DNA of 64,000 nt from Promethearchaeati archaeon SRVP18_Atabeyarchaeia-1 (GCA_037308085.1 CP147779.1:1536001-1600000); one strand, 5' to 3'. Positions 37,727 through 58,297 are shown, numbered from the stretch's first letter. The notes: a model not told the origin generated them from the letters alone. Translations and numbers: made by a program.

Positions 37727-37730
37727 AACC

Positions 37731-40489: not shown

Positions 40490-40630
40490 GATTGCAGTCC
40501 ACAACTTCTAAGTAGAGCCACGTGGAATGATCCGTGAAGCAGTTTCGGGAGGAAACTGACAGTAGGAGAGTGCGCTCCTTTTTGGGAAAGACGGAACCGA
40601 AAGACTCAAAGACTCTACGGTATTTGAGTC
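40461..40630 (+). repeat. 170-bp duplicated segment, copy 1 (copy 2 at 56211-56380), ending in the 33-bp repeat
   Basis: Collinear, high similarity by eye; reads as the relic 3' end of a gene (..EIAVxNFxVEPxGMIxEAVSGGN*). Confidence 0.85.
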
Positions 40631-40795
40631 CTATTCCGCGATACTTCTTTTTCGAGGCGGGGTCAACTTGACTAGCAAGAGAAACTACCCCTGACAATAA
40701 AGAAGGGATGCTAGCATGTGCCGCACGAGTGACGTCTTGTAGCCCCCTGCCCATGAAAATCAGGTCAGAAAAGAGCATTGAAAGCGTTCCATGCA

Positions 40796-41638
40796 CTAAG
40801 CAGGCTTTTCCTTATCCATCTCATCTAGCAAGACCTGTACATCGTCTTCGTCTAAAAGGTCAAACCTTGTTATTCTCCATTGGACTTTCCGACATATTGG
40901 AGTGCCTGGATATGCTCCAACATCGTACAGCTCGTAGTTTCGGAAGATTGTTGGCTTCTCTTGGTAGCATGTCCACACCGCCTTCTTTAAAGTATCAGTA
41001 TCTTCAACTCCTGTGAGATCTATGATTGCCACCTGTTTTCTAAACCTATCAACAGCTTCCATTGTGATGTTGAAAAGGTAAGGCTTGAGTGCCCTCGCAC
41101 CCTTTATGCGTCTTCCCTTGTCAAGCCCCTCTTCGATTAACGCCTTAATAGCCATCCCAGGCATATGCCCCTCAACGCCTCTCCCACATAGTACGAGGTA
41201 GCGTATGTTCGGGTTAGCAACGATATTCGCAATGATTTTCTCGATCCCGATGTTCGCTGTTTGCAGGGTTCCCGCTAGTGCTGCGCCGGACTCGATGGCA
41301 CTCCTTACAAGAGTTTCGATGCCACTGGGGATCTCGCCATAAGATGAACTTAGAAGGGTAATGACAGCTACTGGGGAGTAATCATTTCCTCGGAGATAGT
41401 GCCCATCCTCTGGAGGATAATCATCTGGAGGCTTAACCTTCCGTATCTCCTCAATAATCTCTATCGCTCCTTGAGGACACTTCTCCTCGCATCCTCCGCA
41501 TCTCGAGCATTTCTCCTCTGCCACTGGGACAGCTAGTTCTCTCTCACCGACGGTTCGAAATTCATAGATTCCTTGAGGGCAGGTGTCCACGCAGACGCCG
41601 CATCCCGAGCACTTGTCTTCGTCAACCTTGATCTTCAC
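40796..41638 (-). CDS. 2x[4Fe-4S] ferredoxin-MtrA (corrinoid-binding) fusion
   Basis: CSGCGVCVDTCP and CSRCGGCEEKCP; TANIGIEKIIANIVANPNIRYLVLCG..VEGH; GTG start overlaps the upstream TGA. Confidence 0.88.
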   Translation of the reverse strand: MKIKVDEDKCSGCGVCVDTCPQGIYEFRTVGERELAVPVAEEKCSRCGGCEEKCPQGAIEIIEEIRKVKPPDDYPPEDGHYLRGNDYSPVAVITLLSSSYGEIPSGIETLVRSAIESGAALAGTLQTANIGIEKIIANIVANPNIRYLVLCGRGVEGHMPGMAIKALIEEGLDKGRRIKGARALKPYLFNITMEAVDRFRKQVAIIDLTGVEDTDTLKKAVWTCYQEKPTIFRNYELYDVGAYPGTPICRKVQWRITRFDLLDEDDVQVLLDEMDKEKPA

Positions 41639-42363
41639 TGTCTCCCTGCGCCTCGCTCCCTCGCTGCCTTCTTGATGCGTTCGATTAGACTTAGCTCCTC
41701 GCTTGTCGTCTGGTACTTCCACGGTTCCTTGACCCTTACGGTTATCTTGGTACATATCGCTGGCTTGGGGTAGGCTCCTTCATCATGGAGAAGGTAGCCT
41801 CTGAACTCCACGGGCCTCCTGCTTCTGCACGCTGAGACAGCCTCCCTGACGTATTTAGCATTCATTCCGAGCCAGGGTTCATCCTCTGATATCAGGTTGA
41901 CAGGTTTAATCTGCTCCCTAAACCTCTCAGTTGCCTCTAGCGGCAGATTGTATAGGAATGGTGTTGGGGCCTCAGCCCCGATTATTCTTCGCTTCTCGTC
42001 CACTCCGTTCCCCAAGAGTTTCATAATCGCGTCCGCAGTCAAGTGGCCCGCAGACTCTCTCCAGCATATCACGAGGTATCGTATGTTCGGATTAGCCACA
42101 ACATTCGCAATGATTTTCTCGATCCCAATGTTCTCCGTCTGCACGCTTCCCGCAAGGGTAGCACCGCAGTCTATCGCGGTGCCAATGAGCTCGCTGAGTT
42201 CGACTGGAATATTAGATTCAAGTGTGTCAAGGATCGCCGCTACAGCAACCGGGGAATAATCATCTCCTCTAATGTATCTACCCTCTTCAGGCGGGTACCC
42301 TGGTGGCGGTTTGACCTTGGGGACATCCATACCACTATTCACGTCTACGTTATCACCTCTCAA
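41635..42363 (-). CDS. Soluble MtrA-like corrinoid protein
   Basis: YPPEEGRY.RG...SPVAV, TENIGIEK..NPNIRYL..GH; no C-terminal membrane anchor. Confidence 0.88.
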   Translation of the reverse strand: MRGDNVDVNSGMDVPKVKPPPGYPPEEGRYIRGDDYSPVAVAAILDTLESNIPVELSELIGTAIDCGATLAGSVQTENIGIEKIIANVVANPNIRYLVICWRESAGHLTADAIMKLLGNGVDEKRRIIGAEAPTPFLYNLPLEATERFREQIKPVNLISEDEPWLGMNAKYVREAVSACRSRRPVEFRGYLLHDEGAYPKPAICTKITVRVKEPWKYQTTSEELSLIERIKKAARERGAGRQ

Positions 42364-42584
42364 TCTTGAATTTCAGCTCCTTATTTTTGGCGACTTAAAA
42401 ACCTGTGAAACAAAACGGCTGTCGACACTTGAAGAATAAACGCTATCACGACCACGAATGTTGATGGGTCCCAAATGACAGGACTGCAATTCCCAATGCT
42501 GTGGGCAGGTTCTTCATGCCAGAAGCGTAAGTCACTGAAATACCCTTTGCTCTATTGAAAATCTCTTTTCGGCGCGCATGGGCT

Positions 42585-42854
42585 CTATTCTTCTGCTTCA
42601 CTACGGATGGCATCTTCTAGCTTTTGTGCGTTGAACGTGAACTCGGTCATCTTGATGCCTCCGTTAACGACTACAGCCTTGGTTGACGTCAGACCATATT
42701 TCAAGGCTTCGTCGGAGAAAGCTTGCTTAACTTGGAAGTCAACCTGGCCCCTGAATTTCAAGACAACACTCCAGACCTTATCCATGAAGCTCTGCCAAGA
42801 ACACGCGCAGGCCCCAGTGGGAACAAACACTTCGACCCTGACCTTCTTATCCAT
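42585..42854 (-). CDS. Small thioredoxin-fold protein with CxC motif
   Basis: VEVFVPTGACACS...KYG.....VVVNG. Confidence 0.65.
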   Translation of the reverse strand: MDKKVRVEVFVPTGACACSWQSFMDKVWSVVLKFRGQVDFQVKQAFSDEALKYGLTSTKAVVVNGGIKMTEFTFNAQKLEDAIRSEAEE

Positions 42855-42911
42855 AGTTTACTACCTTCCATATCCATCCTTTGCTGTCTACGGTTCTATC
42901 AATCAGGAGAC

Positions 42912-42973
42912 ACATATTTAAGTTTATAAATATGTTTGGGTCACAAAATACATATTCAGATAGATGAATATGT
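42912..42973. promoter_or_regulatory. Two tandem inverted-repeat operators ACATATTYA-N6-TRAATATGT
   Basis: Perfect 9-6-9 IRs at 42912-42935 and 42950-42973 in the divergent promoter. Confidence 0.8.
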
Positions 42974-43048
42974 TCTTGCTTATGGAAATTAATTCAAACT
43001 AGATGCTTTGCATGCAACAAAGTAAGAGAAAAGAGGGATTGAGCTAAT

Positions 43049-43471
43049 TTGAGCGAGGAAGGCAAAGTTGTCGTCTTGGCCTGTAGTGGCATAGGTAAGG
43101 TTCTGGGGTCGATCACTCGCTTGGTCCTCTACCACATAATAGATGAAATGAGGAGGCAGAACACGACCACGACTTGTCTGCCACTGGTTGCGCTCAAGGA
43201 CAAAGAAGCCGTTGCGCTCGTCAGTAACCATCCATGCATAACTATTGACGGCTGCCCTAACAAATGTGCGAAGGTTTCTGCTGAGAACGCTGGTGCGACC
43301 GCGGTAAAGGCTTTCACTGTGGCCGAGTTCATGCGGAAGTTCAAAGACCTGAAGCCTTCAGCCGCTTCAGTGCTGGAGCCCGGACAAGGTGGAAGGGCAC
43401 TCGCGCGCAAGATTGCTGAACAAATAAGTCTGGAAGTCGACGAGCTATCAAACGAGAATGTCCGGTTTTGA
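43049..43471 (+). CDS. DGC-domain putative Zn-binding protein
   Basis: ACSG, CLP, IDGC...CA. Confidence 0.85.
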   Translation: MSEEGKVVVLACSGIGKVLGSITRLVLYHIIDEMRRQNTTTTCLPLVALKDKEAVALVSNHPCITIDGCPNKCAKVSAENAGATAVKAFTVAEFMRKFKDLKPSAASVLEPGQGGRALARKIAEQISLEVDELSNENVRF

Positions 43472-43937
43472 GGAGGTCCCACGGTTGAGTGAGCATGGCG
43501 ATTGGATGCGCAATAAGGTTGGCGTGGTAACGTGCAGCGGAGAAGAAATCTCCGAGGGAATGGTCTCTAGAGTAGCTGCGAGAAAAGTCCTTGAAGAGCT
43601 CGAACCTAATGACACTATGACGATATGTATTCCTCTTTACTTGGCGGGAGGCGAGGAGGAGAGAAGCTTTGTAACAAAGTCCCCAACAGTCACAATTGAT
43701 GGTTGTGATAAGCTCTGTGCGAAAAGGAGTGTTGAGAAGGTTGGGGGTCGACCCATAGCGGCGGTTGTGGTTACTGACTTCATGAAGAGAGAACACGTCA
43801 AACTCAAGACAGAGTCGCGAAGGGAACTTGAGCCAAAGGGTGCAGAACTGGCAAACACCATTGCTTCCAAGGTCGCTGCCATTATCGAGGATTACGTGAA
43901 GGCTCAAGGCAGAGTGACTGGAAGAAGGGAGGGGTAG
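43458..43937 (+). CDS. DGC-domain putative Zn-binding protein (paralogue)
   Basis: TCSG, CIP, IDGCDKLCA. Confidence 0.85.
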   Translation: MSGFEEVPRLSEHGDWMRNKVGVVTCSGEEISEGMVSRVAARKVLEELEPNDTMTICIPLYLAGGEEERSFVTKSPTVTIDGCDKLCAKRSVEKVGGRPIAAVVVTDFMKREHVKLKTESRRELEPKGAELANTIASKVAAIIEDYVKAQGRVTGRREG

Positions 43938-43941
43938 GAAC

Positions 43942-44397
43942 ATGGAGTTTCTTGAATTTACTATTGACAAATTCATCTTCAGAGTGGTCAAAGGCAACAA
44001 GTACTCTCAAGATGATGTCTGGCTTGCTAGTGCGGGTGAGAGAAGGTGGAGGATCGGGATAACTGACTTCCTTCAGAAAACGAGTGGCGACGCAGTAATT
44101 GCACAATTGCCAGATTTGGGCAGGACCTTTCAGAGGGGTAGCGAGGTGGCGCAGTTTGAAACTGTTAAGACTATCATCTCAGTTCCTATGCCCGTCACCG
44201 GCAAAGTTGTCGAAAGAAATGACAGGATTCTTGATGAGCCTGGGCTCTTGAACAGCGATCCGTATGGTAAAGGCTGGATAGTCACAGTTGAAGCGAGTAA
44301 CGTAGAGAAAGAGTTCAAGCACTTGCTCTCTGACAGCTCCTATTTTGAGTTAATGAAGAAAAAGGTCAGCGAGGTTCAATCCAAGCCGAGAAAGTAA
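43942..44397 (+). CDS. gcvH: Glycine cleavage H-like lipoyl carrier
   Basis: IGITDF.Q...GD, ETVK (lipoyl Lys), N.DPYG.GW. Confidence 0.88.
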   Translation: MEFLEFTIDKFIFRVVKGNKYSQDDVWLASAGERRWRIGITDFLQKTSGDAVIAQLPDLGRTFQRGSEVAQFETVKTIISVPMPVTGKVVERNDRILDEPGLLNSDPYGKGWIVTVEASNVEKEFKHLLSDSSYFELMKKKVSEVQSKPRK

Positions 44398-44472
44398 ACA
44401 TGTCAATATAACATTGTCTCTTGGATCATCGTGTCTATTCCAGAGCCAGATATGTAGGGGTGGTGTTAGTTC

Positions 44473-44898
44473 TTGCCAGTCTACAGAACTAAGGTAACTT
44501 GGTTGGGCGGGAATACTGGTAGCCTTGAGTGTGGGAATGGCACCCGAATGGATTTTAGCGCTCCTCCAAGCCTCCACGGCAAACATGGGGTGATGACTCC
44601 GGAGGATGGTTTCGTGGCTTCGCTGAACATGTGCGTGCACATGATGTTTATTTGGGTCGCAGAGAGGATGAAGATAGAACTTCTGTCTTATGAGTGTGAA
44701 GCGGAGGGGACAGTTCAGGACAGACTTGATAGGACATCCGTCTTTACGAAGCTGATTTTGAGACCAAGAATAGTAGTTAGGATGGCGACAGAAGAGAAGG
44801 TCAAACAGGCGATGCAGCTAGCGAGGAAATTCAGTCTAGTGGCAGAATCAATAAGACCTGAGGTAGTCATTGAGCCCGAGGTAACAATTAAGCGTTAA
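44473..44898 (+). CDS. OsmC-family protein
   Basis: APP...G.....TPED..VASL..C; second Cys apparently replaced (FSLV). Confidence 0.8.
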   Translation: MPVYRTKVTWLGGNTGSLECGNGTRMDFSAPPSLHGKHGVMTPEDGFVASLNMCVHMMFIWVAERMKIELLSYECEAEGTVQDRLDRTSVFTKLILRPRIVVRMATEEKVKQAMQLARKFSLVAESIRPEVVIEPEVTIKR

Positions 44899-45103
44899 CA
44901 CTCCTCTCACCGTATTAACCAGAGTCGCACCTGCTATATATGTGAAGGTCATCTATACGAGCCAGTAGAAGCAGGAGTCTTTGGTGTCTTTGCCTTGGTT
45001 ACGCCCGCTATTTGCGCATCATACCCAAATTTCGTTATTGTGGTGGTCAGCGGATGCGTCAAGTACGAACCTAAGAAGTTCTGAAGAAAACCAATATGGC
45101 GTG

Positions 45104-45820
45104 TTACCCTGTTCCTCTTCTTATCATCTCTGCATACTCGTGTGGTAACTCTGAAGCCTCGATGGCGCTCGTCATTCTTTCCACATCATATTGAACTCTC
45201 CTAAAACCTATGCTCAACTCTTCAGCTGGAGTCAAGAGAGCGTAAGTTGCCCTTGGGTCACCATCCTTGGGCTTTCCGAGACTTCCGACGTTTACGACAT
45301 GCTTATCGTCTATCACCTTGTGGTAGGGCAGATGCGTATGTCCACACACGAGGAGATTGCATCCTCCTGCCTGCAGGAGGCGATTGAAGGTCTTCGCTGG
45401 TCTGTCCTCGTATAGGTACTCATTAATCCTTCTGGGGCTACCATGAGTGAGAAGGATCTCGAATGCCTCTTGGCTGAAGCGTAGCTCGCGCGGCAGGGTC
45501 CTCAGGAATTCCTTGTTCTCCCTTGTGACGTGGGTCTTCGTCCAATCTAGGGAGCGGTGACCGAGCAATCTCTGCGTTTCGTCTGTATAAGCGCACCCAC
45601 AGTCGTCTCTCTCAAAGCCGACACCTTCATCATAGTTGCCCATCACACCTGCGATTCCCTTGCTCCTTATGCTGCTTATCACTTCATTTGGAAAGGGGCC
45701 GTATCCAACAAGGTCCCCACAGTGGAGGATCTTGTCAGCGCCTTGCTCTTCAATGTCAAGGAGAACCGACTCAAGGGCGGGAAGGTTGCTGTGAACATCG
45801 GAGAAAATCGCGTACTTCAT
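45104..45820 (-). CDS. Metallophosphoesterase (calcineurin-like; ars-operon-associated type)
   Basis: SDVHSN, GDLVGYG, GNYD, DCGCAY, HGSPR, GHTH. Confidence 0.9.
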   Translation of the reverse strand: MKYAIFSDVHSNLPALESVLLDIEEQGADKILHCGDLVGYGPFPNEVISSIRSKGIAGVMGNYDEGVGFERDDCGCAYTDETQRLLGHRSLDWTKTHVTRENKEFLRTLPRELRFSQEAFEILLTHGSPRRINEYLYEDRPAKTFNRLLQAGGCNLLVCGHTHLPYHKVIDDKHVVNVGSLGKPKDGDPRATYALLTPAEELSIGFRRVQYDVERMTSAIEASELPHEYAEMIRRGTG

Positions 45821-45844
45821 GGGGGGTGACCATCTCGAGTTTCT

Positions 45845-46234
45845 CTACTTCAGCGATTCCAGTTTCTTCATGGTCTCAACAATCTTTGGGTTTGCAAGGG
45901 AATAGTAAGCCCACTTCCCTTCTTTCCTTCTTTCTAGCAAACCCTCCTTCTCCAACAGCACTAGGTGGTGAGACGCAGTTGGTTGTGTCATGTCCAATGC
46001 AGCCATTATCTCGCAAACGCACATCCTGCGAACCATTAATAACTTCAATATTCTAATTCTGCTGTCGTCACTTAGAGCTTTGAAGAGCCGGCTTTCTCTG
46101 ATGGCTAAATCCTTGTTCGCTACCTTGGCAGCCAACTCCTTCAACTCATTCGCGTATCTGGAAGCATCTTTGCCCTGGCAATAGGGCGAAGCAACCAACC
46201 TAACCAGTCTCCTGTCAGAATGACTCTTCGACAT
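45845..46234 (-). CDS. arsR: ArsR repressor
   Basis: FKALSD..RIRIL, MCVCEI (alpha3 As(III) site), SHHL..L...GL. Confidence 0.9.
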   Translation of the reverse strand: MSKSHSDRRLVRLVASPYCQGKDASRYANELKELAAKVANKDLAIRESRLFKALSDDSRIRILKLLMVRRMCVCEIMAALDMTQPTASHHLVLLEKEGLLERRKEGKWAYYSLANPKIVETMKKLESLK

Positions 46235-46253
46235 GTTCTCATCCACTGCTAGT

Positions 46254-46277
46254 TCATATCTGCGAGACCAAATATGT
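46254..46277. promoter_or_regulatory. Operator copy upstream of arsR
   Basis: TCATATCTG-CGAGAC-CAAATATGT. Confidence 0.65.
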
Positions 46278-46487
46278 ATTTTGCCGGAAGGCAACTTCAG
46301 CCGCTTGAGCTATTGAAGCACCTTGACCCCATAAAGATCTGTGAAACGGCCAGCGCCGCGTTCCCCCCTATTTCTGTCGGTGACGGTCTGCCCCTCCTCT
46401 GAGCATTGTTCCAAACCAGTATCTATGTTAATCTCTTGTCGCTTCTGTGCCGATCATAATAAGATATATATGTCACTTCTTGCGGAT

Positions 46488-46519
46488 TCATATTAATAAA
46501 TCTAAATACGTAAATATGA
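46488..46519. promoter_or_regulatory. Operator copy (or copies) upstream of acr3
   Basis: TCATATTAA-TAAATC-TAAATACGT, plus an overlapping TAAATATGA half-site. Confidence 0.6.
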
Positions 46520-46531
46520 ACCTAGATAGCG

Positions 46532-47620
46532 GTGTGGAACATGCCTGAGAAATCCTTGAAGAAACTTTCGCTGATCGATAGGTTACTTCCGATCTGGATT
46601 TTTCTTGCGATGGCTATCGGCGTGGGAGCAGGGTGGGCATTCCCACAGATTGCGACGATTTTTAACATGCTCCAGATAGGAACGGTTTCGCTTCCCATTG
46701 CGATCGGATTGCTGTGGATGATGTATCCTCCCCTTGCTAAGGTGAAGTATGAGGAGCTCGGGAAGATTAAGGGTGCGAAGAAAATGTTTGGAGTGTCGCT
46801 CTTCCTAAACTGGGTAATTGGACCTTTCCTCATGTTTTCGCTGGCCTGGCTCTTTCTGCCTGATCTGCCTGATTATAGGGTTGGTATCATCATAGTTGGG
46901 TTGGCTAGATGCATTGCGATGGTCTTGATATGGAACCTGCTTGCAGGCGGTGATAGTGAGTATGCCGCTGTCTTGGTTGCTCTCAATTCGATCTTCCAGA
47001 TGGTGTTCTACTCGATCTACGCCTACTTCTTCGTGACCTTGCTCTCCTCTTGGGTAAGCGGGTCTGCGGGCATGGTCGTGAATATCTCGGTTTGGAGTAT
47101 CGCGCAGAGCGTTTTGATCTTTCTCGGTCTTCCTTTCGCCGCCGGAATAATCACTAGGTTCACGTTGATCCACAGAAAGGGGAAGGTATGGTATGAAGAG
47201 AAATTCATTCCGAGGCTGAGCCCCACCGCAATCATCGGCCTCCTCTTCACAATAGTCGTAATGTTCTCCATGAAAGGTGAGTACATATTGAATTTGCCTT
47301 TTGATGTGCTCAGGGTTGCCGTCCCTCTGGCGTTGTATTTTCTGATAATGTTTTTCACTTCTTTTCTCCTGTCTTGGCGCTTGAGGTTCAGTTATCCTGA
47401 AACGGCGACGCTCTCCTTTACCGCTGCGAGCAACAACTTTGAGCTTGCGATAGCTGTAGCTGTCGGGGTGTTCGGGATAAACTCGGGGCAGGCTTTCGCC
47501 GCAGTCATAGGGCCTCTAATCGAAGTTCCGGTGCTTATCGGCCTAGTCTACGTTTCACTCTGGCTAAAGACCAAGATGTTCGCCAAGGCGAGAAGATCTG
47601 GGATGAGTGGCAAGACCTAA
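46532..47620 (+). CDS. acr3: Acr3 arsenite efflux transporter
   Basis: [36 protein letters not shown]. Confidence 0.95.
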
Positions 47621-47901
47621 GAGCGATGCTGCAAGCCTGAAAGCCAACGGTAGCTTAGTCTGAATCTGAAGGACGGAACGGGTGGGAGAGGCAAGGACGC
47701 TCAACTTCAGCGAGGACTCCGTCGAAAGACTCAAAGACTCGCCGGTGAAAAGCGCGCGCTCCGTTTCTGGAAAACTCTGAATATGTGAGAGTGTCTAACA
47801 AGTTTTCCTCAATGAAGAAAGAAAGAGTGAGTGGCTTTTAGGTTCACACTTCCGTAACCCTAATCCTTTCTGGTAGGTAGCGCGCGCTATGAGGGCTAAA
47901 T

Positions 47902-49095
47902 CTAATCGTGTAGAGTAATAGCGACTGGTATCAAAAGGATGAATGCTGCGCCAGTAAAAAGGAAGGTCATATTGATGCTCATGAACCCCATTAGCACACC
48001 AGCCATCAATGGGCCAAGCGTATAGCCTACGTCTTTGAATGCGGCTATCGCCCCAGTCATGGCCACCTTGTTTTCCCCGAGCGTATCAGACATCCTCGAG
48101 TATAACACTATGAAGATCATGGTATAGCTTACTGTAAAAGCAGTCAAGATTGCCATCGTATAGTATATGCTACTCGCGAAAGGTATTATGCTGCTTGGCA
48201 ACGGTATCAGGATCGCAGTGACGGTTGTGAATACTGTCGCCACTATCAGCGTCCTGCGTACGCCAAATCTGTCCACCGCGTTTCCCATCGGTACTTCGAG
48301 AGCAACGGCAGGCAAGAGAGCCACCGTAAGTAATGTACCGATTGTAGGAATAGGGATTCCTTCACTGTAGAGGAGTACCGATAGGAATGAGTAATAAACG
48401 TTGATCAAAGCATAGAACACGACTGTTAGAAAAATAGTCTTTATGAATCGTCTATTACGCATATACTTGAATAGTGTCGCGGTTTGACGACTCGAATGTG
48501 CTCTCTGAGATCTAGGTATATTCTTCAAGAAGATTGAGATCACAAGGAATGCGGTAAAGCTTGTTAGACTAAGCAAATAGAACGGTAGTGAGAATGAAAT
48601 GATAGTGACGAGGCCTCCTATGATGGGGAATATGGCTGAGGCTAGATCATTCATGTCGGAGAAGAATCCGGTTTCCTTTCCCTTTACCTCCTTTTCGGCA
48701 TAGCTGAAGATGTAAGCCCACGAAGTTAGCCAGAGGAAAGATGATGCAACTCCCCTAGTGACACTTACCAGCAGTAGTGGCAGGAAGGAATTTGCCACAG
48801 TATACAGTAATGCAAGGATGGAGTAAACGAGTAACACCACTTGGAGAACTCGTTTCATATTTATCCTGTTCTCTGCGAGACCGACGGGTATATTGAGGAA
48901 TATTCCCATCATTGTTGTCAGTGAAAGAATAACGCCAGTCATGAACAGATCTCCAGTCACGTTCTGTATATATATCGAGAAAACTGGTGAGGCAATTCCC
49001 CAACCGCCAGTGTAGACAAAAAACGCGACCGAGACTGGCAATATTACCCTTTTGAAATTGGTGATATGCCGTAACTCGCTGAACTCCTTGAACAT
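47902..49095 (-). CDS. MFS transporter
   Basis: About 12 TM helices; DRFGVRR; GYTLGP. Confidence 0.85.
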   Translation of the reverse strand: MFKEFSELRHITNFKRVILPVSVAFFVYTGGWGIASPVFSIYIQNVTGDLFMTGVILSLTTMMGIFLNIPVGLAENRINMKRVLQVVLLVYSILALLYTVANSFLPLLLVSVTRGVASSFLWLTSWAYIFSYAEKEVKGKETGFFSDMNDLASAIFPIIGGLVTIISFSLPFYLLSLTSFTAFLVISIFLKNIPRSQRAHSSRQTATLFKYMRNRRFIKTIFLTVVFYALINVYYSFLSVLLYSEGIPIPTIGTLLTVALLPAVALEVPMGNAVDRFGVRRTLIVATVFTTVTAILIPLPSSIIPFASSIYYTMAILTAFTVSYTMIFIVLYSRMSDTLGENKVAMTGAIAAFKDVGYTLGPLMAGVLMGFMSINMTFLFTGAAFILLIPVAITLHD

Positions 49096-49553: not shown

Positions 49554-50596
49554 CTAGGGTTTCGAACGATTCCCACGCGCGTTAAGAGAGTTCAATTTAT
49601 CTCTGAAGATTTTGAGAGACTCGTGATCTGTGAGCACGTAGACCAGATCTCCTTCCTCAAGCTGAAAGTCGTCTACCATATCAGTCATGCTCTCACCGTT
49701 TCTGTAGACAAGCAGGATAGGGCAGATTCCCATGATGTCTCTGTACTGGATTCCAGAGTTTCTTATTCTGAACTCGGCAACGTGCCTCGACTTCAAGTTG
49801 TCTGTAAGGAAGACACCAGCTACCTCCTTTGAACTGGAAGACAATGCAAGTATTTGCCCCGTAATCTCGGAAAACGGGATTACTATGTCAGCACCCGCAT
49901 CCCTCACACCTTTCACTAACTCTCTGTCGTTGACTATGGAGACAGTTCTAATGCTGTTATTGAGCTTCTTTGCCATCATAACTGTCAGCATGTTGTCACC
50001 GTCGTCTTCTAACGTGGATAGTAGGGTGGATGCTTTCTCAACGTTTGCATCCTTAAGCGCCTCATAAACGTTGGTTATAGGCGCGAACATACCTGGAATG
50101 TTACGGGACCTCAGAAGGTCGAGCTGGCTCTCGTCTCTGGCGATAACGATGTATTCGAGTTTGAGTGACTAATGCTCTCCACCACGTATTTCCCTAAGAA
50201 CATGTAACCAACCACGATTACGTGGTTCTCCATCCTCTTCGCCAGTTTCTGGCTCAGCTCCTCGGTCATAAGCCCCTTCTTAATGGTTGCGGAGACAGTT
50301 ACTTGAAGGAGAGACGCGGCTGAACCCACGGCTATGATGAAGACGAATATGAGTAGAACCTTTTCCGTGCTGACCATAGTAACTATGTTGGGCGCGTAGA
50401 TACCGATGGTCGTGATTGTAGAGATCGAGCCTAGAAGGGCGGTCAGAAAGTCTAGCCCCTGATAGTACATGAATATCAGCGCCCCAATCAAGAACATTGA
50501 GAAGAGTATAGTGAGTTGAATCCAGACGCGCTTAAGGATGTAGTACGGCGCGTAGACTGCGATGTCGAGCGTTCTTCTTAGCCTTTTCGCTTTCAA
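49554..50596 (-). pseudogene. K+ channel with RCK (TrkA-N/C) domains, split by one frameshift near 50165
   Basis: TITTIG pore helix, NHVIVVGY..LG; continues LKLEYIVIARD..AGAD.VI.P in another frame. Confidence 0.8.
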
Positions 50597-50949
50597 ATTC
50601 TCGCGTTTCCCGCTCGTTTCCTAGGGGTAGAATTCACGAATCTTTCAACGTGTTCCTGCGTCCACAATGCCCGTCCACTTTTCTTACGACCTTCAAACCT
50701 GCAGTTGCATTCAGAAACTCCGCGCAGCCGTACAAAGTTTTCCGGATAACCTTGGTCTTACCAATCGCACTTGGCTTCTATTATTCACTTCGATGTACTT
50801 CTTTCATGGATTCCTTTCGTCCATGGTCATGGGCAGCAGTCATCAGCGCTCGCGATCAGCAGTAGAATGGAATGGCACCAAGAGCGATGAGAGGAATTGC
50901 CAGAAAGGTGTAACGCTGGCGCGCGTTACGTGCTGCTTGTTCAGCTTGG

Positions 50950-51348
50950 TCAGGTGAGATTCTTCACTTGGTGTGCAAGGATTCCTCTATATCTCGAAGC
51001 ACATTTACGTTCTTCAGAGGAGGCTCTTCTTGCAGCCCACTCTAGAAGCGGAGTGATTGATTTCCTGAGTTCCGTTCCGTCGGTGGTAAGTGAGTATTCT
51101 ACACGGGGAGGTATCTCCGAAAAGGCTTCTCTCCTGATTATGCCTTCACCTTGAAGTCCTTTCAACGTGTCAGATAGGGTTTTGGGGCTGATGCCACCCA
51201 ACTCTTCCATGAGCCCATTGAACCTGAGCCTCCCATTATTGCCGATAGCGTTGACGACCAGGAGCGCCCACTTCTTGCCTATAACATCTATGACGCCTTC
51301 AAGAGGGCAGAGGCATACATGATCACCATTTTCACACATACTAATCAC
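50950..51348 (-). CDS. HxlR-family regulator
   Basis: CP....DVIGKKW, ISPKTLS..LK.L, PPRVEYSLT. Confidence 0.9.
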   Translation of the reverse strand: MISMCENGDHVCLCPLEGVIDVIGKKWALLVVNAIGNNGRLRFNGLMEELGGISPKTLSDTLKGLQGEGIIRREAFSEIPPRVEYSLTTDGTELRKSITPLLEWAARRASSEERKCASRYRGILAHQVKNLT

Positions 51349-51444
51349 TTACTCTGTGCATAGTCACTGTCTTGCTATAAACTTGGTAGTATAAATACTT
51401 CACTTTTGATATTGTTAACCTCATAGAAATGAGGTGAACAAAAA

Positions 51445-51630
51445 ATGTGTTGCCGTTGCAATTGTGAACAGCATCATCATGAGGAAGGACGAGAAGATGA
51501 ATACGGCCTATGCCACACAAGGCGTTTCCTAACTAAAGCAGAGAAGACTGAGAAAATGAAGGGCTATGCAGAGGAGCTAAGGAAGGAACTTGCAGCAGTC
51601 GAAGAGCACATCAAAGAATTGGAAAGCTAA
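51445..51630 (+). CDS. Small Cys/His-rich coiled-coil protein (DUF5320-like)
   Basis: MCCRCNC..HHH, RRFLTK.E, coiled coil; GAGGTGA RBS; divergent from HxlR. Confidence 0.7.
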   Translation: MCCRCNCEQHHHEEGREDEYGLCHTRRFLTKAEKTEKMKGYAEELRKELAAVEEHIKELES

Positions 51631-51844
51631 GGGTAGTCGCGAAATAGACGTCCAAGAACTGCGTTCCCCCTTTCCAATCGCGGGATCATAGTCAAGAACT
51701 GCTTACCTAAAGAAAGAACCAAGTCAGAGAAGGAACCCCCATTTGGGAAACAATGAGTCAGACTGAGACCGGGGAGCGCACAAACCTGCTAGGATGAGGC
51801 TTTGGATTGCAGATAGCTTCTGAGAACGAAAGGAGACTGGAAAT

Positions 51845-52774
51845 ATGACTGCGGAAGACGCCATTGAAGTCTCAAATCTAACCAAACACTATGATAACCT
51901 ACTGGCGGTCGATCACATAAGCTTCGAGGTTAGGAAGGGAGAGATCTTTGGCTTCTTGGGTCCCAATGGTGCTGGCAAGACAACTACGATTAGAATGCTC
52001 ACTGGTATCATCAAACCTGATGACGGCGCGGCTTCGATCTTGGGCCATGACATTCTGAGAGAGGGGCTCAAGAGTAGACAAGTAACAGGGGTCGTTCCAG
52101 AAATGGCGAATGCCTACATTGACCTCTCAGCCTGGGGAAACCTGACACTGATGGGCGAGTTATATGGAGTACCCAGGAGGCAGAGAGAGAAGAGCGCCTC
52201 TGCGCTCCTGAGAAAAGTCAGGCTATATGATCGAAGGAATAGCCTTGTAAGAGGATTCTCAAGAGGAATGAAGCAGAGGCTGCTATTGTGCATGGCACTC
52301 GTCAGTGAGCCACAAATTCTCTTCCTAGACGAACCCACGTCAGGTCTAGATGTCGAGAGCCAATGGTTGATAAAAGATATGATTCGTGAAATCAACAAAA
52401 GCGGAACAACTGTGTTCTTGACAACACATAACATGGAAGAAGCTAACCAGCTCTGCGATAGAATAGCAATCATCAATCACGGCAAGATCGCAGCGATCGA
52501 TACTCCAGAGAAGCTCCGCATGCAAAGCAGCGGATTGAACTCCGTCGAGGTAAGCTTCGAAAAGGCGATACAAGCTGAAGAATTGATGAAAATCGAAGGT
52601 GCAAGAGAGGTCAAAAAAACTGGGGATAAGATAAGACTGTACACAGATCAGCCAAGCATAGTACTCGAGAGGATTGTTGATTTTGCGCGCTCAAGGAGGC
52701 TCAAAATAGTCACCCTCAACACGTTAGGTCCCACTCTAGAAGACGTATTCCTAAGACTTGTGAAGGAAAGTTAA
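51845..52774 (+). CDS. ABC exporter ATP-binding subunit (DrrA-like)
   Basis: GPNGAGKTT, FSRGM, LDEPT. Confidence 0.93.
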   Translation: MTAEDAIEVSNLTKHYDNLLAVDHISFEVRKGEIFGFLGPNGAGKTTTIRMLTGIIKPDDGAASILGHDILREGLKSRQVTGVVPEMANAYIDLSAWGNLTLMGELYGVPRRQREKSASALLRKVRLYDRRNSLVRGFSRGMKQRLLLCMALVSEPQILFLDEPTSGLDVESQWLIKDMIREINKSGTTVFLTTHNMEEANQLCDRIAIINHGKIAAIDTPEKLRMQSSGLNSVEVSFEKAIQAEELMKIEGAREVKKTGDKIRLYTDQPSIVLERIVDFARSRRLKIVTLNTLGPTLEDVFLRLVKES

Positions 52775-52780
52775 GGGAGG

Positions 52781-53548
52781 ATGATGCGATTCTTGGGCAA
52801 ACATGTTTATTCGGAGCAGTTCAAACGGTCTCTTGCGATCGTCAAGAAGAACATACGGATCTACTACTCTAAGGGGCCCGTAATCACTTTTGGTCTTCTG
52901 ATACCATTCTTTCTTTTTCTTTCGTTCTATATTGGGAGGAGTTCAAGTGTTGAGGATTTGATACCCGGGTTGCTTGCAATAACTGTCTTCTTCACAGCTA
53001 GCTCGGTGGGGCCCGCAATAGTTCCTTGGGAAGCGAGATCAAAGACTCTCGAGAGGCTCGTATCCTGTCCCGTCTCAATCTGGACGATCTTTGTCGGCGA
53101 CATGCTTTCATCCTTCCTGTTCGGGGCCATTATCTCAGTATTTCCTGTGATCATCGGCTTGTTGCTAGGCGTGGAGATAGCCAGCCCGCTATTGCTTGGA
53201 CTCGGAATAACTGCGGGAGCATTATGTTTTGCAGCTTTGGGAGTGCTCATGTCTGCCTATCCGCCGACAGATGTTCCAGCGACCATAATGATGCTGTCTT
53301 CTATGATCAAGTTTCCGCTGGTTTTTATAAGTGGTATCTTCATTCCCATTCAAGAGCTGCCGGACTGGGGCAGAATAGTCTCCTCATTTTCTCCGTTGAC
53401 ATATTTCACAGATCTGGGGAGGAGCTCAATACAAGGCTACAGCTACTACCCCTATTGGCTGGACATCGTGGTCGTGGTCGCATTCGCAATTGTCTTCTTG
53501 GTCTCAGCCGTGAAACTTCATGAACGCACAATACAGAAACGACTTTGA
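52781..53548 (+). CDS. ABC-2 permease
   Basis: 6 TM helices; FISGIF.P...LP.W, PLTY. Confidence 0.9.
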   Translation: MMRFLGKHVYSEQFKRSLAIVKKNIRIYYSKGPVITFGLLIPFFLFLSFYIGRSSSVEDLIPGLLAITVFFTASSVGPAIVPWEARSKTLERLVSCPVSIWTIFVGDMLSSFLFGAIISVFPVIIGLLLGVEIASPLLLGLGITAGALCFAALGVLMSAYPPTDVPATIMMLSSMIKFPLVFISGIFIPIQELPDWGRIVSSFSPLTYFTDLGRSSIQGYSYYPYWLDIVVVVAFAIVFLVSAVKLHERTIQKRL

Positions 53549-53730
53549 GACGCACAAAGATGAAGCGAATATCCTCTACGAGGAAGAAGAAAAAGGTGCA
53601 CCCTCGCTCGTCCTAGCGCACGGGGCAGCAATCGTCAGCTGGCAGCACGCGACCTCGCTGATTTGTGGAACAGTCCGCTGACTGCCAAGATGGCAGTGAA
53701 GGTGGGCGCTTTGGGGTCTCTGGATGAATC

Positions 53731-54207
53731 TTAATCCTTTTTTGTTTTCTTCCTCTTGTTGTATCTGTACTGGTAGTATCCGAAAGAACTCATCATAATG
53801 AAGAAGGAGACCACAAGCATATTTCCATAGAAGTTTGAGACTAGGTATCCATACCAGTTCAAGCCTATACTTCCGATGAAAAGGAGCAGAAGGTAAACAG
53901 TGAGGCCGATTGGCCAACGGTCAGGATGATGATAGGGCTTCTTTCGAGTGATTAAACGATACCAAAGGTCGTAGACCAGATAGATGATTATGGGTAGTCC
54001 TGCTACCAAACGTCCTGAATCGTTGCCAATTAAGAGGTTCACCACCCAAAGCAGAGTGAAGGGTATCAGCTGGAGACTGAACACAGGGCTCAACTTCCAC
54101 TCCAGCTTTTCGAGTTGGTGAGCACGCAACAGATATACGACTATCAGGAAAGCATAGAAGACCAGCGCAAAGAAGATAACAAGATTATCGATAAGAACTT
54201 TATCCAT
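53731..54207 (-). CDS. Membrane protein
   Basis: About 5 TM helices, basic C-terminus. Confidence 0.65.
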   Translation of the reverse strand: MDKVLIDNLVIFFALVFYAFLIVVYLLRAHQLEKLEWKLSPVFSLQLIPFTLLWVVNLLIGNDSGRLVAGLPIIIYLVYDLWYRLITRKKPYHHPDRWPIGLTVYLLLLFIGSIGLNWYGYLVSNFYGNMLVVSFFIMMSSFGYYQYRYNKRKKTKKD

Positions 54208-54565
54208 GAGACAGAGCCAACCTGATATTTGACAAGAATTGAGGATAAGAATGTTAGAGTCTGGGGATTCAATACGGTCCTAACTGTGCATATAACGTTT
54301 TCAAGCGCGCGATTTATCTCTTTTTCTTCTGCTGCTTCCTGCTGCTACGTTGAAGCGCTCTACTAGGATAACTACGATGATGGCTCAGTCAGGGACTGCA
54401 CCGAAAGACTCTGGCACCAAGCAGTGTTTGAGTGTAGTTCCCCTATAGCGCGCGCTCATAGAAGGGGGGGATGAGAGTTCTTGATGTCCACATAGGTATG
54501 CCTTTAATACTTTGTTGAGTCAAGGTTTTGCAGAGTTCGAGAAGTTGTACGGGCTGGTTCTGAGC

Positions 54566-55147
54566 ATGACAAGAAAGAAGGTTGGAAGCAAGCCTCTCCT
54601 TTTCCCATTCCCGGTCACGATAGTCGGGGCAGATGTCGGTGGAAAACCAAACTTCATGGCGATCGGATACATTGGAATAATCGATGACACACCATCCATG
54701 ATCGCACTAGGATCACTAAAGAGCCATTACACAAACAGAGGCATCATTGAAAACAAGACCTTCTCTGTCAACATCCCAACAGAAGAGATGCTCCAAATCA
54801 CCGACTATGTAGGGACAATCTCCAGGGAGAAGGTAGACAAGTCGAAGCTATTCGATGTCTTCTACGGTAGGCTGAAGAACGCACCAATGATAGAGCAGTG
54901 CCCAGTCAACCTTGAATGCAAGGTTCTCGATATCCTAGAAAAAGGGGGCACGTATTACAACATCATTGGCGAGATTGTTGAATCTTATGTTGACGAGAAA
55001 TACGTGACTGGAAAGTACCCGGACATCGAGAAGATGAAACCTATGGTCTTCTCAGTAGCCGGCGCCAAGTACTACTCAATTGGCAAGTACCTTGGAACTA
55101 TGGGGAGCGCGAGCAAGGACTTCAAACGCGAGATAAAAAAGCAATAG
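54566..55147 (+). CDS. Flavin reductase (flavoredoxin) family
   Basis: FP.PVTIVG, HYT...I....FSVNIP, APMI..CPVNLEC. Confidence 0.88.
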   Translation: MTRKKVGSKPLLFPFPVTIVGADVGGKPNFMAIGYIGIIDDTPSMIALGSLKSHYTNRGIIENKTFSVNIPTEEMLQITDYVGTISREKVDKSKLFDVFYGRLKNAPMIEQCPVNLECKVLDILEKGGTYYNIIGEIVESYVDEKYVTGKYPDIEKMKPMVFSVAGAKYYSIGKYLGTMGSASKDFKREIKKQ

Positions 55148-55377
55148 CCTTCAGCAGCGCGCGCTAATTGAAACCAGAGCCAGGCGGAGAGGATGGTGTG
55201 GTGGCACTTCTCAGATAATATTTCGCAGAGACTAGCAGAGAGATCAGAAGAGGCGATGTGGAGCTACCCTAGACGCATAATGCATGGTCTCGGTATTGAG
55301 CGGTCAGCCAGACGCTCAAAAGTAATATCAATAGTGCAGATCGGAGGGGCGAGAGAACGGAAAAAATACCGCCGTCT

Positions 55378-56139
55378 TTGGCGAAATCGGGCGCGAAGGA
55401 AATACTAGAACGAATGAAATCAATCTCAGGAGGAAAAGTCTTAGATGTCTGCACGGGAAGCGGTGATTTCATTCAAGCCTTGGTACAGACCCTGAAGGAT
55501 TTTGTTTCCTTCGTAGGAGTTGACGTGTCAGAGAGGGATTTGGAAGCTGGAAAAAAGCGCTTTGTGGGCAGACCTGTAGAGTTTAGGAAAATGGATGCAA
55601 GGATTCTGGAATTCCAAGAAAACAGTTTTGACACTGTCACCATGGCCAATTCAATGCACCATCTTGACGAAGTAGGGAAAGGGCTGGATGAAATGAAACG
55701 TGTTTTGAAGCCCGGAGGGTACCTTATCGTCAATGAGCCATATTGTGATGGTAGGCAAAACGAAGCGCAGAAGACAGACATACTCAAACATCACTGGACT
55801 TCTGAGATTGATTCATTGTTGGGAATCACTCATCATTACACATTCACCAAAAAAGAGATCAAAAGGTTGATCGCTAGGCTTGGATTAAGGGATTTCGAGA
55901 CGCTTGATTCCGCGCGCTATGTCAAATGCTTGTATTGCGAACGAATGTATGAGTGCGAAGACCCAAGAAGTGAAAACCACCTCAAAGACATGATAAAGGA
56001 GATCAACGAAGATCTCGAGCGCTTGAAGACACACCCCGAAGCGAGAAAACTAGGACAGGAGGGCGAGAAGCTGAAGGAGAGAGTCAAGAAAGTCGGCTCC
56101 GCGGACGCCTCAAGCCTGTTTCTCATTGGTACTAAGTGA
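55378..56139 (+). CDS. Class I SAM-dependent methyltransferase
   Basis: VLDVCTGSG, SFDTV, RVLKPGG; extra CLYC....EC. Confidence 0.88.
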   Translation: MAKSGAKEILERMKSISGGKVLDVCTGSGDFIQALVQTLKDFVSFVGVDVSERDLEAGKKRFVGRPVEFRKMDARILEFQENSFDTVTMANSMHHLDEVGKGLDEMKRVLKPGGYLIVNEPYCDGRQNEAQKTDILKHHWTSEIDSLLGITHHYTFTKKEIKRLIARLGLRDFETLDSARYVKCLYCERMYECEDPRSENHLKDMIKEINEDLERLKTHPEARKLGQEGEKLKERVKKVGSADASSLFLIGTK

Positions 56140-56540
56140 CAGCCCCCCTAGTTCTCTTCGGTCACTTCTTGGGTTTGCGCAGATACTCTGGAATTGGAAC
56201 ATCCCTGCTCATGATCCAAAATCGAGGAGAGGAGGGTGAGATAGCTGTCCGCAACTTCCAAGTAGAGCCAAGTGGAATGATCCTTGAAGCAGTTTCGGGA
56301 GGAAATTGACACGAGGACTGCGCGCTCCTTTCTGGGAAAGACGGCACCGAAAGACTCAAAGACTCGCCAGTATTTGAGTCCAAGTTTCCTCCAAACACTT
56401 CTTTTTGAAAAAGAGCTTTCAGCTCTGATTCAGACTGACCTTGATCAGTCTTAAGAGAAGCATGCAGTGCAGAGAAAACGAGGTTTATCGACGTTGGCAG
56501 ATTCTCGACAATTCAAGTGTCTCAACCCCGTCGAGCTCTC

Positions 56541-56804
56541 TCAGGGTCGGTAGACTCTCTTTCTGAGGTCCAGATTAACCAAGACTATTATGCTCTCTTT
56601 TTCGTAGATCTTGAATAGTGCTCTATACTTTCCAAGGCGCAATCTGAAGGTATCCTCTTCTCCAGCAATCTTGACAATGTCCAGTTTGGCACTCGGAAAG
56701 TCTTCGAGTTCTCTGAGCTTTTCTATTACCCGTGTCCTACTGCTGGCATCCAGCCTCCCAATAGCTGATTCAACTTTTCTGTGAAGTAGAACCCTGAACT
56801 TCAT
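56541..56804 (-). CDS. RelE/ParE-family toxin
   Basis: FRLRLGKYRALF, R..VY. Confidence 0.85.
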   Translation of the reverse strand: MKFRVLLHRKVESAIGRLDASSRTRVIEKLRELEDFPSAKLDIVKIAGEEDTFRLRLGKYRALFKIYEKESIIVLVNLDLRKRVYRP

Positions 56805-57018
56805 CGAGAGGCGTCAACTCACTCAATTTCCTTTCCTTGATCATATTGTCAGCTTCTCTGAGCAGTCTGTATTCTTCTGGTGTCAAGAAGACGTCTTCAA
56901 GGAACTCGCGCAATTCATCGATCTTTCTGTCGATCTCCTTGACTTTGTTTAGAACTGATGAACTCGTGGAAACCACCAATCCAGAGTTAATGGAGCGTGT
57001 CTTAAAAAGTCTTCCCAA
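56770..57018 (-). CDS. Putative cognate antitoxin (true start probably downstream of 57018)
   Basis: Small acidic protein (LTPEE..LDEV) overlapping the toxin start. Confidence 0.65.
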   Translation of the reverse strand: MGRLFKTRSINSGLVVSTSSSVLNKVKEIDRKIDELREFLEDVFLTPEEYRLLREADNMIKERKLSELTPLDEVQGSTSQKS

Positions 57019-57477
57019 CCCAGTCGCTGTTTCATCAAACCACTGTGAAGCATTCAGACAGTCTTGGAAAGCTATTGCTCAACCGCTGGAACAGTCTTAG
57101 GCTAAGCTTTTGTTGTTTTCAGTTGGCTTAAGATTCTTGAGCCCCAACGAAAGACTCAAAGACTCGACAGTATTTGAGTCCAGTTCACCGTCAGCCCATC
57201 TTTTTGACTCGAAGGCTTGTTGCTGTGCCTCATACAGGTTCCTAGGGTAACGCCTCCGTCAGTAGGCGCTTCTGGCGTTGTCAAGGGTCGAAGAAGATAG
57301 CCTCGAAGAACTTGGAGTTGCAAGCCCATAAGCATTAACTGCGCGTAACATACCTATCTGATGGACTCAATAGAATAGCCATAACTATTTAATTCGAAAA
57401 GTCCAATGATTACTTGAAGTAAGCTATGATGAAAGAGAAACGTTGGCTTAAGAAAGGTTGGAAGTGAAGTCAAAGAT

Positions 57478-57684
57478 ATGCGTCAAGTTATCCTTTATCT
57501 TGGCGAAGATGGCTACTGGGTTGCTGACTGCTCCAGTCTACCTGGATGTGTTAGCCAAGGCAAGACAAAGGAAGAGGCTATCGCCAATATTAAGGAGGCC
57601 ATCCAAGGTTACATCGAAGCATTGCAGGATGACAATATGCCTGTGCCTGCTGAGCATTTTGAGGCTATCGTGGTGGCAGTATGA
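57478..57684 (+). CDS. hicB: HicB antitoxin
   Basis: EDGYW.A....LPGC.SQG.T.EEA..NIKEAI. Confidence 0.9.
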   Translation: MRQVILYLGEDGYWVADCSSLPGCVSQGKTKEEAIANIKEAIQGYIEALQDDNMPVPAEHFEAIVVAV

Positions 57685-57902
57685 GCAAACTACCCCTCAT
57701 CTCGGGTCGTAAGTGCGTAAAGGCGCTGGAAAAGACGAATTTCTATATCAAGAGGCAAAGCGGAAGTCACATAATCCTGCGCCGCGACGATCCTTTCACT
57801 CAAGTTGTAGTCCCTGATCATAAAGAGCTCGACTGAGGAACTCTGCTAGCCATCATAAAACATGCCGGTCTGACAGTCGAAGACTTTATGAAGCTTCTTT
57901 AG
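57681..57902 (+). pseudogene. hicA: HicA toxin with an in-frame TGA
   Basis: MSKLP..SG...KAL....RQSGSH....VVVPDHKELD*GTL..I...AGL; TGA at 57834-57836. Confidence 0.88.
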
Positions 57903-58297
57903 AATAGAACTTGTGCGGGTCTTGCCAGATTCACCGCACCAAGGTCATTTGCTGGATGCCCGCGCCGAAAGACTCAAATACCAAGATTCTCACTAACTTG
58001 TAAGGACGGCTCAGATTTGAGATCCGTTGAGGTGAACCACAAGATGGTTTGGAGGGATATACAAACCACGGTCTGAGTATCAGGAACTTGTTTTGTTATG
58101 TGGTTACTCCGCCAGTAGTGGTTCCCGTCGCCTTCACCAGTTCTGCATGATTTCCTCCGCTGCGATACCTCTTTCTCCATTTCGTATTATAGAAGAAGCT
58201 AGAAGAGAGCTTTTTTCAGAGGAGGTTATCTTTGTGAACCAACGTGGACAGAGGCAGAGATGGAAACGAGGAGCCGTTAAGGAGATGAATAAGCAGA

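Follow-up and report, generated by a model that had tools for sequence, protein, structure and literature searches.

Among described genetic systems, the pdif modules of Acinetobacter and the integrative mobile elements exploiting Xer (IMEX), which include CTX, TLC and the gonococcal island, are among the closest to the locus reported here, an array of recurring 33-bp sites on the chromosome of Promethearchaeati archaeon SRVP18_Atabeyarchaeia-1. The array lies in a window of 64,000 nucleotides (the whole stretch of DNA analysed, bases 1,536,001-1,600,000 of the complete 2,808,651-bp genome, CP147779.1), and positions given below are those of the window unless stated in kb or Mb of the genome. 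As in pdif modules and IMEX, each site combines conserved arms with a variable spacer in 11-6-11 geometry, the modules in between have no recombinase of their own, the cargo comprises resistance, transport and toxin-antitoxin genes, and identical modules are found in different contexts. The enzyme in such systems is presumed to be a housekeeping recombinase of the host acting in trans, and a Xer enzyme may have the same role here. However, pdif modules are bounded by C/D and D/C sites in inverted orientation and reside on plasmids, whereas the array here is archaeal, chromosomal and composed of direct sites. Its site, lacking TAA-N6-TTA, also does not resemble known dif, and there is a fixed docking half-site before thrS, the gene for threonyl-tRNA synthetase.

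Two further systems are relevant. Sedentary integrons and clusters of attC sites lacking an integron integrase (CALINs), including archaeal examples (PMC9668308), likewise have co-oriented sites, swappable modules and toxin-antitoxin cassettes, and a distinct site, similar to attI in that only one arm is canonical, anchors one end of the array here. Unlike integrons, the locus has no IntI, no attC cores or fold and no integrase adjoining the array, its sites are conserved in sequence, and its modules often contain several genes on both strands with their own regulators. Archaeal XerA/dif (PMC2958812) offers a match for the 11-bp inverted arms, the 6-bp spacer, the conserved flanks and the single XerA-like gene located away from the site, but dif is a single-copy site at the terminus with TAA-N6-8-TTA, whereas the sites here are multi-copy, occupy several loci and have other arm sequences. 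The wetland genomes concerned and their mobile elements have been described (PMC11291895, PMC11529989). Although integrated elements are listed there, neither paper mentions the array, the text of PMC11529989 contains no mention of cassettes, hairpins or an integron at the locus, and our literature search found no description of such arrays in archaea. The array looks like an integron-like or dif-module-like gene-shuffling system that was previously undescribed. A preliminary description of this DNA, made from the sequence alone, had proposed an integron- or pdif-like platform for module accretion with its own recombination site. That proposal is partly supported: its site-bounded modules hold up, and its link to dif/Xer is not established. 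We file the array among site-specific-recombination module arrays, and it can fairly be called an archaeal cassette system that has a recombination site of its own.

Direct reading of the window yields five full 33-bp sites and two left-arm half-sites, all on the + strand. Upstream of thrS, the site divides about 20 kb of DNA into modules of accessory genes. The sites and the modules that they delimit, with gene content assigned by Pfam, are as follows.

32889-32921, + strand: possible relic site, very decayed (about 8/16 of the left part and 6/11 of the right arm), below the nhmmer threshold
37090-37122, + strand: decayed full site, in which the CTCCAATAT variant of the left arm is followed by TAGCTCCCC and a T-rich tail (nhmmer E 0.0075, Infernal E 4.9e-4)
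37123-40597: module 1, with an IS605-type insertion sequence, two small open reading frames (ORFs) and an AHSA1/SRPBCC protein (39947-40489)
40460-40597, + strand: 138-nt 'long form' upstream of site 40598, repeated at 56210-56347 (repeat finding, blastn)
40598-40630, + strand: full consensus site, spacer TCTACG
40631-47722: module 2, with two MtrA-like genes (- strand, 40796-42363) and the arsenic module
42562-47616: arsenic core module, with a small ORF, 2 DGC, GcvH, OsmC, a metallophosphoesterase, ArsR and an SBF/ACR3-type carrier
47723-47746, + strand: half-site with left part, spacer TCGCCG and GT, then replaced by sequence with AGCGCGCGCT
47747-49334: module 3, with a major facilitator superfamily (MFS) transporter (47902-49227, - strand)
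49335-49367, + strand: full site with two left-arm mismatches, spacer TCAACG
49368-54401: module 4, with a TrkA_N protein, two or three small ORFs, an HxlR regulator, an ABC-2 exporter pair (51845-53548) and a 158-aa ORF
54402-54434, + strand: divergent full site (six mismatches), spacer CAAGCA
54435-56347: module 5, with a flavin reductase (54512-55147) and an S-adenosylmethionine (SAM) methyltransferase (55378-56139), ending in the 138-nt long-form repeat
56348-56380, + strand: full consensus site, spacer TCGCCA
56381-57147: module 6, with a ParE/RelE-type toxin (56541-56804, - strand) and an 82-aa partner (56770-57018)
57148-57180, + strand: full consensus site, spacer TCGACA
57181-57965: module 7, with a HicB-like ORF (57458-57712) and a HicA toxin (57681-57836)
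57966-57981, + strand: terminal docking half-site, with the conserved left part and T at position 14 (...CAAATAC), joined to the thrS leader, no right arm
57982-58297: conserved non-coding leader from array to thrS (four-way alignment, ORF comparison)
58298-60220, + strand: thrS, the fixed right-hand anchor (Pfam; 79% amino-acid identity to the sister genus)

Most of what the preliminary description had recorded is borne out by this map. Its five 33-bp sites are read at 40598, 49335, 54402, 56348 and 57148, its spacers agree with the sequence, the copy at 54402 is divergent as stated, and Pfam agrees with its account of module content (MtrA/ars, MFS, TrkA_N/HxlR/ABC-2, flavin reductase/methyltransferase, ParE-like and HicA). 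Its seven co-oriented copies are indeed co-oriented, but two of them (47723 and 57966) are half-sites. The statement that there are no copies in 1-40 kb was slightly wrong, because a decayed copy lies at 37090 and a probable relic at 32889-32921, both further left than the other copies. The observation of the site array is real, and it extends further than first noted.

The sites are distinctive in sequence. With up to three mismatches allowed, the 28-bp core GACTCAAAGAC-N6-GTATTTGAGTC is matched at 40603, 49340, 56353 and 57153, compared with 0.00 matches in shuffled sequence. The conserved element exceeds 33 bp, since about 25 nt upstream of the core and a downstream flank of about 40 nt belong to it. 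Its layout is a semi-conserved upstream flank, the left part CGAAAGACTCAAAGAC, the spacer, the right arm GTATTTGAGTC, yrrTTCyCC, about eight variable nucleotides and a T-run. Two sequence variants of the left arm occur and the right arm is nearly invariant, the inner arms reading ...AGAC-N6-GTAT..., while the spacer follows the pattern TCgn-CR with the central two to three bases free. The whole is an imperfect 11-6-11 inverted repeat, and no other recurring 11-6-11 repeat is present in the genome. All copies keep the single + strand orientation whatever the direction of the flanking genes.

Comparison between genomes supports the conclusion that the sites are module boundaries, at which gene content and order change from one genome to another. 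The clearest case is the arsenic module, for which a segment of 5077 nt is 89.7% identical to a copy at about 1.853-1.858 Mb in the genome of the sister genus, Candidatus Atabeyarchaeum deiterrae Atabeyarchaeia-2 (CP147780.1); thrS of the same pair is 72.9% identical. The sister-genus copy is inverted, is 350 kb away from the thrS array and has two full sites in the same orientation around it, and its neighbours are homologues of genes located at 2.126 and 2.130 Mb in Atabeyarchaeia-1. Another copy (85.7% identical; thrS 73%) was found on L034, one of the contigs from a single scan of public metagenome contigs. This copy is inside a thrS array, between two sites and with other neighbours, and has neither the MtrA pair nor the phosphoesterase. 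In both of these relatives, the left border of the module directly follows a site T-run, and the flank preceding the module is homologous to the downstream flank of site 49335. The MtrA-like pair (40796-42363), in which one gene is fused to a ferredoxin (2x[4Fe-4S]) domain, is absent from both other copies and is therefore an addition specific to Atabeyarchaeia-1.

Other modules show the same behaviour. The ParE cassette is 88% identical between metagenome contig L027 and the congener (the metagenome-assembled genome LC30, 94% complete), with different cassettes on both sides. In the congener, the two sites that enclose it share one spacer (TCGCCG). The ABC exporter pair (83% amino-acid identity) lies beside a site on congener contig C185, next to genes that are at 2.68 Mb in Atabeyarchaeia-1, and a cassette resembling ParE and its 82-aa partner lies between sites on congener contig C64, next to genes from 2.715 Mb. 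The 82-aa partner in module 6 is itself 68% identical to an ORF in the congener array, and the spacer CAAGCA of site 54402 recurs both in the congener and on L027. On contig L030, an insert of 2.75 kb that contains two sites lies between genes with a spacing of 8 bp in Atabeyarchaeia-1. Content or order thus changes at the sites for the arsenic, ParE and ABC modules, and the comparisons do not show sites scattered genome-wide at fixed positions relative to promoters or terminators with synteny unbroken. A co-oriented array with cassettes that differ between strains, as is expected of an integron, is what we find.

Toxin-antitoxin pairs, hydrolases, transporters and small enzymes are among the cargo of the arrays in the congener, the sister genus and six metagenome contigs. 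This cargo includes HepT/MNT and PIN toxin modules and three alpha/beta hydrolases that occupy one module apiece, along with a polyprenyl synthase, a membrane methyltransferase, an FAD monooxygenase and a KaiC-V4R protein. Recombinase families had no match among the approximately 50 module ORFs scanned.

The distribution of the site is narrow. Scans of the whole genome by regular expression, nhmmer and a sequence-only Infernal model place it almost exclusively in the stretch upstream of thrS, the exceptions being a right-arm half-site at 868.7 kb, a weak match at 1.710 Mb and the decayed copy at 37090-37122. Repetitive extragenic palindromic (REP) sequences or miniature inverted-repeat transposable elements would have many copies across the genome, and the site occupies one stretch plus two outliers in 2.81 Mb. 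Only three of the 151 genomes in the phylum sample contain it, and these are the three Atabeyarchaeia, with 9, 8 and 8 matches. Metagenome searching added true copies on six further contigs, several of which carry arrays, with different cargo each time; four of the 11 matches (L024, L028, L029 and L032) are due to chance, as is a match in G033 that falls inside a coding repeat. A carrier virus or plasmid was considered and rejected: the full site is absent from the viral and plasmid-like contigs of IMG/VR, and 12 right-arm matches there are due to chance.

The two ends of the array differ in character. On the right, it stops just before thrS, as had been reported, with the terminal half-site at 57966 and thrS at 58298. 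The same half-site (...CAAATAC) and its junction with the thrS leader are present in four lineages, namely Atabeyarchaeia-1, the sister genus (L017:1561), L027 (5070) and L034. On the left, the 37090 site is the edge of the region that differs between Atabeyarchaeia-1 and its congener, with synteny ending at 37081. The relic at 32889-32921, which lies between a 151-aa ORF and a catalase-Fur block, is orthologous by position to a good sister-genus site (L016:14549, E 2e-13) that follows a homologue of 32356-32808. Furthermore, the sister genus has the catalase-Fur and hydrolase blocks in the opposite order, and sites lie at their borders. Given the conserved junction on the thrS side and these breaks in synteny on the left, the array is anchored at thrS and open at the left, where its oldest sites have decayed.

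Some additional features of the flanks deserve mention. The swapped blocks correspond to window positions 33030-37081 and to L016:14549-18640, and the hydrolase block includes a 133-aa ORF. The catalase-Fur block is 84% identical in nucleotide sequence to that of the sister genus, versus 73% for thrS. To the left of the array are the hydrolase and catalase-Fur genes, and to the right are thrS, two TrmB-like genes and cysS. The four lineages share, almost unchanged, a block of about 20 nt (...GGAGGGATATACAAACC...) in the thrS leader, approximately 230 nt upstream of the start codon. Neither a tRNA nor an Rfam match was found in the leader (57982-58297) or this block, and a 68-aa ORF on the - strand next to the terminal half-site is not conserved as a protein. 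The TrmB-family regulator genes that follow thrS are in tandem (60328-62037). In Thermococcus, a TrmB-like protein shapes a chromosome-domain boundary at dif (PMC11840125), but any link between that role and the genes here would be pure speculation.

The anatomy of the junctions fits exchange at the spacer. Half-sites break at spacer borders: the left arm and spacer persist at 47723, and the spacer and right arm at 868.7 kb. A 172-nt repeat (40460-40631 and 56210-56381, 87% identical) extends across the left flank and both arms and ends where the right arm ends, and its copies differ at three of the six spacer bases. The terminal left-arm hybrid before thrS is what the right end of an insertion should look like if a chromosomal secondary site was the target. 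As a separate observation, comparison with the sister genus shows an insert of about 240 nt upstream of the 868.7-kb half-site, in a conserved non-coding stretch (L072:2836-3101, genome approximately 868,835-869,100), bounded by duplicated TCACATGAG.

Sequence rather than fold is conserved at the sites. Among 28 aligned sites, the covariation score is 0.056 compared with 0.059 in shuffles, 392 of 500 shuffles reaching the score. Pair 19-36 is broken in nine sites, and the same G-A mismatch occurs in 21. Perfect copies can form a hairpin (-7.7 to -8.7 kcal/mol), and the variant sites 49335 and 54402 fold no better than shuffles. A folded hairpin, whether attC-like or RNA, was rejected on these grounds. 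The absence of compensatory change, together with arms conserved in sequence, is the pattern of a double-stranded site read by a protein. This is the opposite of attC, where the fold is kept while the sequence drifts. The geometry and the conservative junctions point to a tyrosine recombinase, and we believe that these are probably double-stranded sites for conservative site-specific recombination by such an enzyme acting in trans.

Four genes for PF00589 proteins are present in Atabeyarchaeia-1, none of them in or beside the array. One encodes a XerA-like protein (L018:1450-2322, - strand) and is the only such gene in this genome, 420 kb from the array; the other three are integrases of 429-468 aa. 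The simplest candidate for the enzyme may be the XerA-like protein, because it is the only tyrosine recombinase found in all three Atabeyarchaeia genomes (290-304 aa, 67-76% identity), a correlation that spans three related genomes. Its best matches are XerA of Thermoplasma (PDB 5hxy, 4e-26) and the NCBIfam model recomb_XerA_Arch. Taken alone, the proposal that the host XerA-like protein is the enzyme is tentative, and we would sooner expect it to be wrong than right. The preliminary description had also offered the recombinase at 18258-19547 as a candidate, a suggestion that we abandon. This 429-aa integrase ends a separate integrated element of roughly 16 kb (about 3431-19726) that lacks the site. 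It is 91% identical to a copy at 1.662 Mb in a second element (1.6546-1.6634 Mb), and the two elements share a 560-nt end segment.

Several observations weigh against a host Xer enzyme working on dif-like sites to move these modules. The XerA-like protein scores 183 bits in NCBIfam, under the cut-off of 220. A family of approximately 440-aa integrases is common to Atabeyarchaeia-1 and the sister genus, and serine recombinases and Y1 transposases are, like the XerA-like protein, present in all three genomes. The site does not have TAA-N6-8-TTA, described as the best-conserved feature of dif in archaea (PMC11840125). Furthermore, the site is multi-copy, its copies in the sister genus occupy five loci on both strands, and the array (1.577-1.594 Mb) is about 200 kb from the peak of guanine-cytosine skew (1.366-1.375 Mb). 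It is therefore not a typical dif. Some site-bearing inserts occupy loci that are siteless in Atabeyarchaeia-1, which needs entry at secondary sites or another mechanism. Finally, some breakpoints fall at a decamer rich in GCGCGC and are left unexplained. Thus, the dif/Xer link drawn in the preliminary description keeps its 11-6-11 geometry and gains the occurrence of a XerA-like protein in all three genomes, on which two points it rests, but it is opposed by the missing TAA-N6-8-TTA and the number of copies, and it is not established. We also searched for a canonical dif elsewhere in the chromosome, but there are only weak TAA-N6-TTA candidates, none conserved, and the best of these (1,480,307) is absent from the congener and the sister genus.

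The decamer in question is the palindrome AGCGCGCGCT, of which there are 17 copies in the 2.8-Mb genome, including one at 868700. Eight are in the window (1225, 10038, 14655, 47751, 47879, 49391, 54447 and 55156), five of them in the array. Copies adjoin the half-sites at 47723 and 868.7 kb and lie on either side of the flavin-reductase gene, and the decamer is also found at the left border of the arsenic module. These decamers may be secondary recombination points or fragile alternating-CG DNA.

The large integrases lead to what we regard as the best of the alternatives, albeit an unlikely one. The sites might be the att scars of integrative elements that entered in tandem at one att site, with the element integrase, perhaps of the approximately 440-aa family, now elsewhere or lost and the modules decayed. 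Tandem integration of this kind is known in archaea (reviewed in PMC8371274), 14 integrated elements were reported in a survey of this genome (PMC11529989), and the integrase family shared with the sister genus (37% identity) could have supplied the enzyme. However, approximately 25 modules, the smallest of 0.8 kb, contain no integrase, replication or virus gene. The large integrases sit in their own elements of 9-16 kb, which contain no copy of the site, and none was found in the congener, a genome that is 94% complete. The site is also strongly conserved across genera and the cargo is not. We find neither an att core in a tRNA gene nor an integrase within the element, as would characterize tandem elements. 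An att site in a tRNA or other RNA gene was rejected because ARAGORN, run with or without introns, finds no tRNA, although the intron-rich tRNA genes of this lineage could escape it.

A tyrosine recombinase acting on protein-read sites must also be compared with readings in which no dedicated recombination is needed. The element could be a regulatory or structural DNA or RNA signal, such as a terminator, insulator, operator or small RNA, whose copies serve as patches for homologous recombination. The T-run after each site and the hairpin of perfect copies would suit such a signal, and conserved repeats of 70-100 nt could support homologous exchange. Against this reading, the sites keep one orientation regardless of the direction of flanking genes and are confined to accessory islands. 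Homologous recombination does not predict breaks of half-sites exactly at the spacer borders. An intrinsic terminator was rejected because the T-run is too far from the stem for the sites to be flagged as such, and no Rfam family is found at the sites, which also lack covariation. We give this explanation a rather small chance.

We assign only a slight chance to a mechanism in which a hairpin in single-stranded DNA guides an HUH/Y1 transposase (IS200/IS605 or REP-associated) that cleaves at a distance, perhaps at GCGCGC. The Y1 transposases of the three genomes include one inside module 1, the hairpin has a conserved 5' flank, and some breakpoints are at GCGCGC 45-56 nt downstream. However, stems show no compensatory changes and variant sites do not fold, the GCGCGC motif is near only about five of the 28 sites, and there is one type of site without distinct left and right ends. 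Moreover, the tnpA in the window belongs to an ordinary IS605-type insertion sequence in module 1 (37200-39060), where the Y1 tnpA (approximately 37364-37714, PF01797 match at genome positions 1573364-1573714) is followed by tnpB (37704-39056). A classical integron cassette array without integrase (CALIN) has a negligible chance of being correct and is already refuted by the defining features that we tested. In its favour are the enrichment of integrons in Asgard genomes (PMC9668308) and the co-oriented array with toxin-antitoxin cassettes. However, the 28 aligned sites contain no RYYYAAC/GTTRRRY cores and no covariation, and the site is 33 bp and conserved in sequence whereas attC is conserved in structure and spans 57-141 bp. 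The best integron integrase model (TIGR02249) gives the 290-aa XerA-like protein 87.7 bits, and its cut-off is 265. Given the lack of compensatory changes, attC cores, an integron integrase and a module recombinase, the locus is not an integron, and the preliminary description was right that its sites, with no R- or L-box cores and no attC fold, are not of the attC type.

If a tyrosine recombinase acts at these sites as we propose, the mechanism could be as follows. Two 11-bp arms, each bound by protein, around a 6-bp spacer would form the recombination site at the junctions of mobile modules. A module would leave as a circle with one full site and re-enter at a full site or half-site, and repeated entry upstream of thrS would generate a co-oriented array. 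The right end would be a fixed hybrid junction between a left arm and the thrS leader, older than the split of the two genera. Differing spacers of neighbouring sites would hinder recombination and hold most modules in place, and modules would occasionally land at other places in the chromosome and pass between genera. The enzyme would be supplied in trans and would most likely be a tyrosine recombinase, with the XerA-like protein of the host favoured. The analysis demonstrates the sites, their confinement to this family, the boundaries of the modules and the fact that modules move, and the chemistry, the circular intermediate and the enzyme are the parts of this scheme that we infer. In its complete form, in which Atabeyarchaeia use a housekeeping XerA-type recombinase and a lineage-specific 33-bp site as an integron-like platform for capture and shuffling, docked before thrS, with modules that hop between loci and cross genera, the proposal is a speculative one that we hold possible but do not favour outright.

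The uptake and reshuffling of accessory genes are poorly known in archaea, and especially in Asgard archaea, the closest relatives of eukaryotes. With its defined 33-bp site and docking junction, and with no fewer than three modules known from several contexts, the locus makes module capture testable in one uncultured lineage of Asgard archaea. If the host XerA protein is the enzyme, Xer-dependent mobile modules would extend from bacteria to archaea, and the finding would bear on how integron-type systems arise from the machinery for chromosome resolution. The cargo, made up of genes for arsenic handling, efflux, redox enzymes and toxin-antitoxin pairs, suggests that the array is an adaptive tool-box for the organism.

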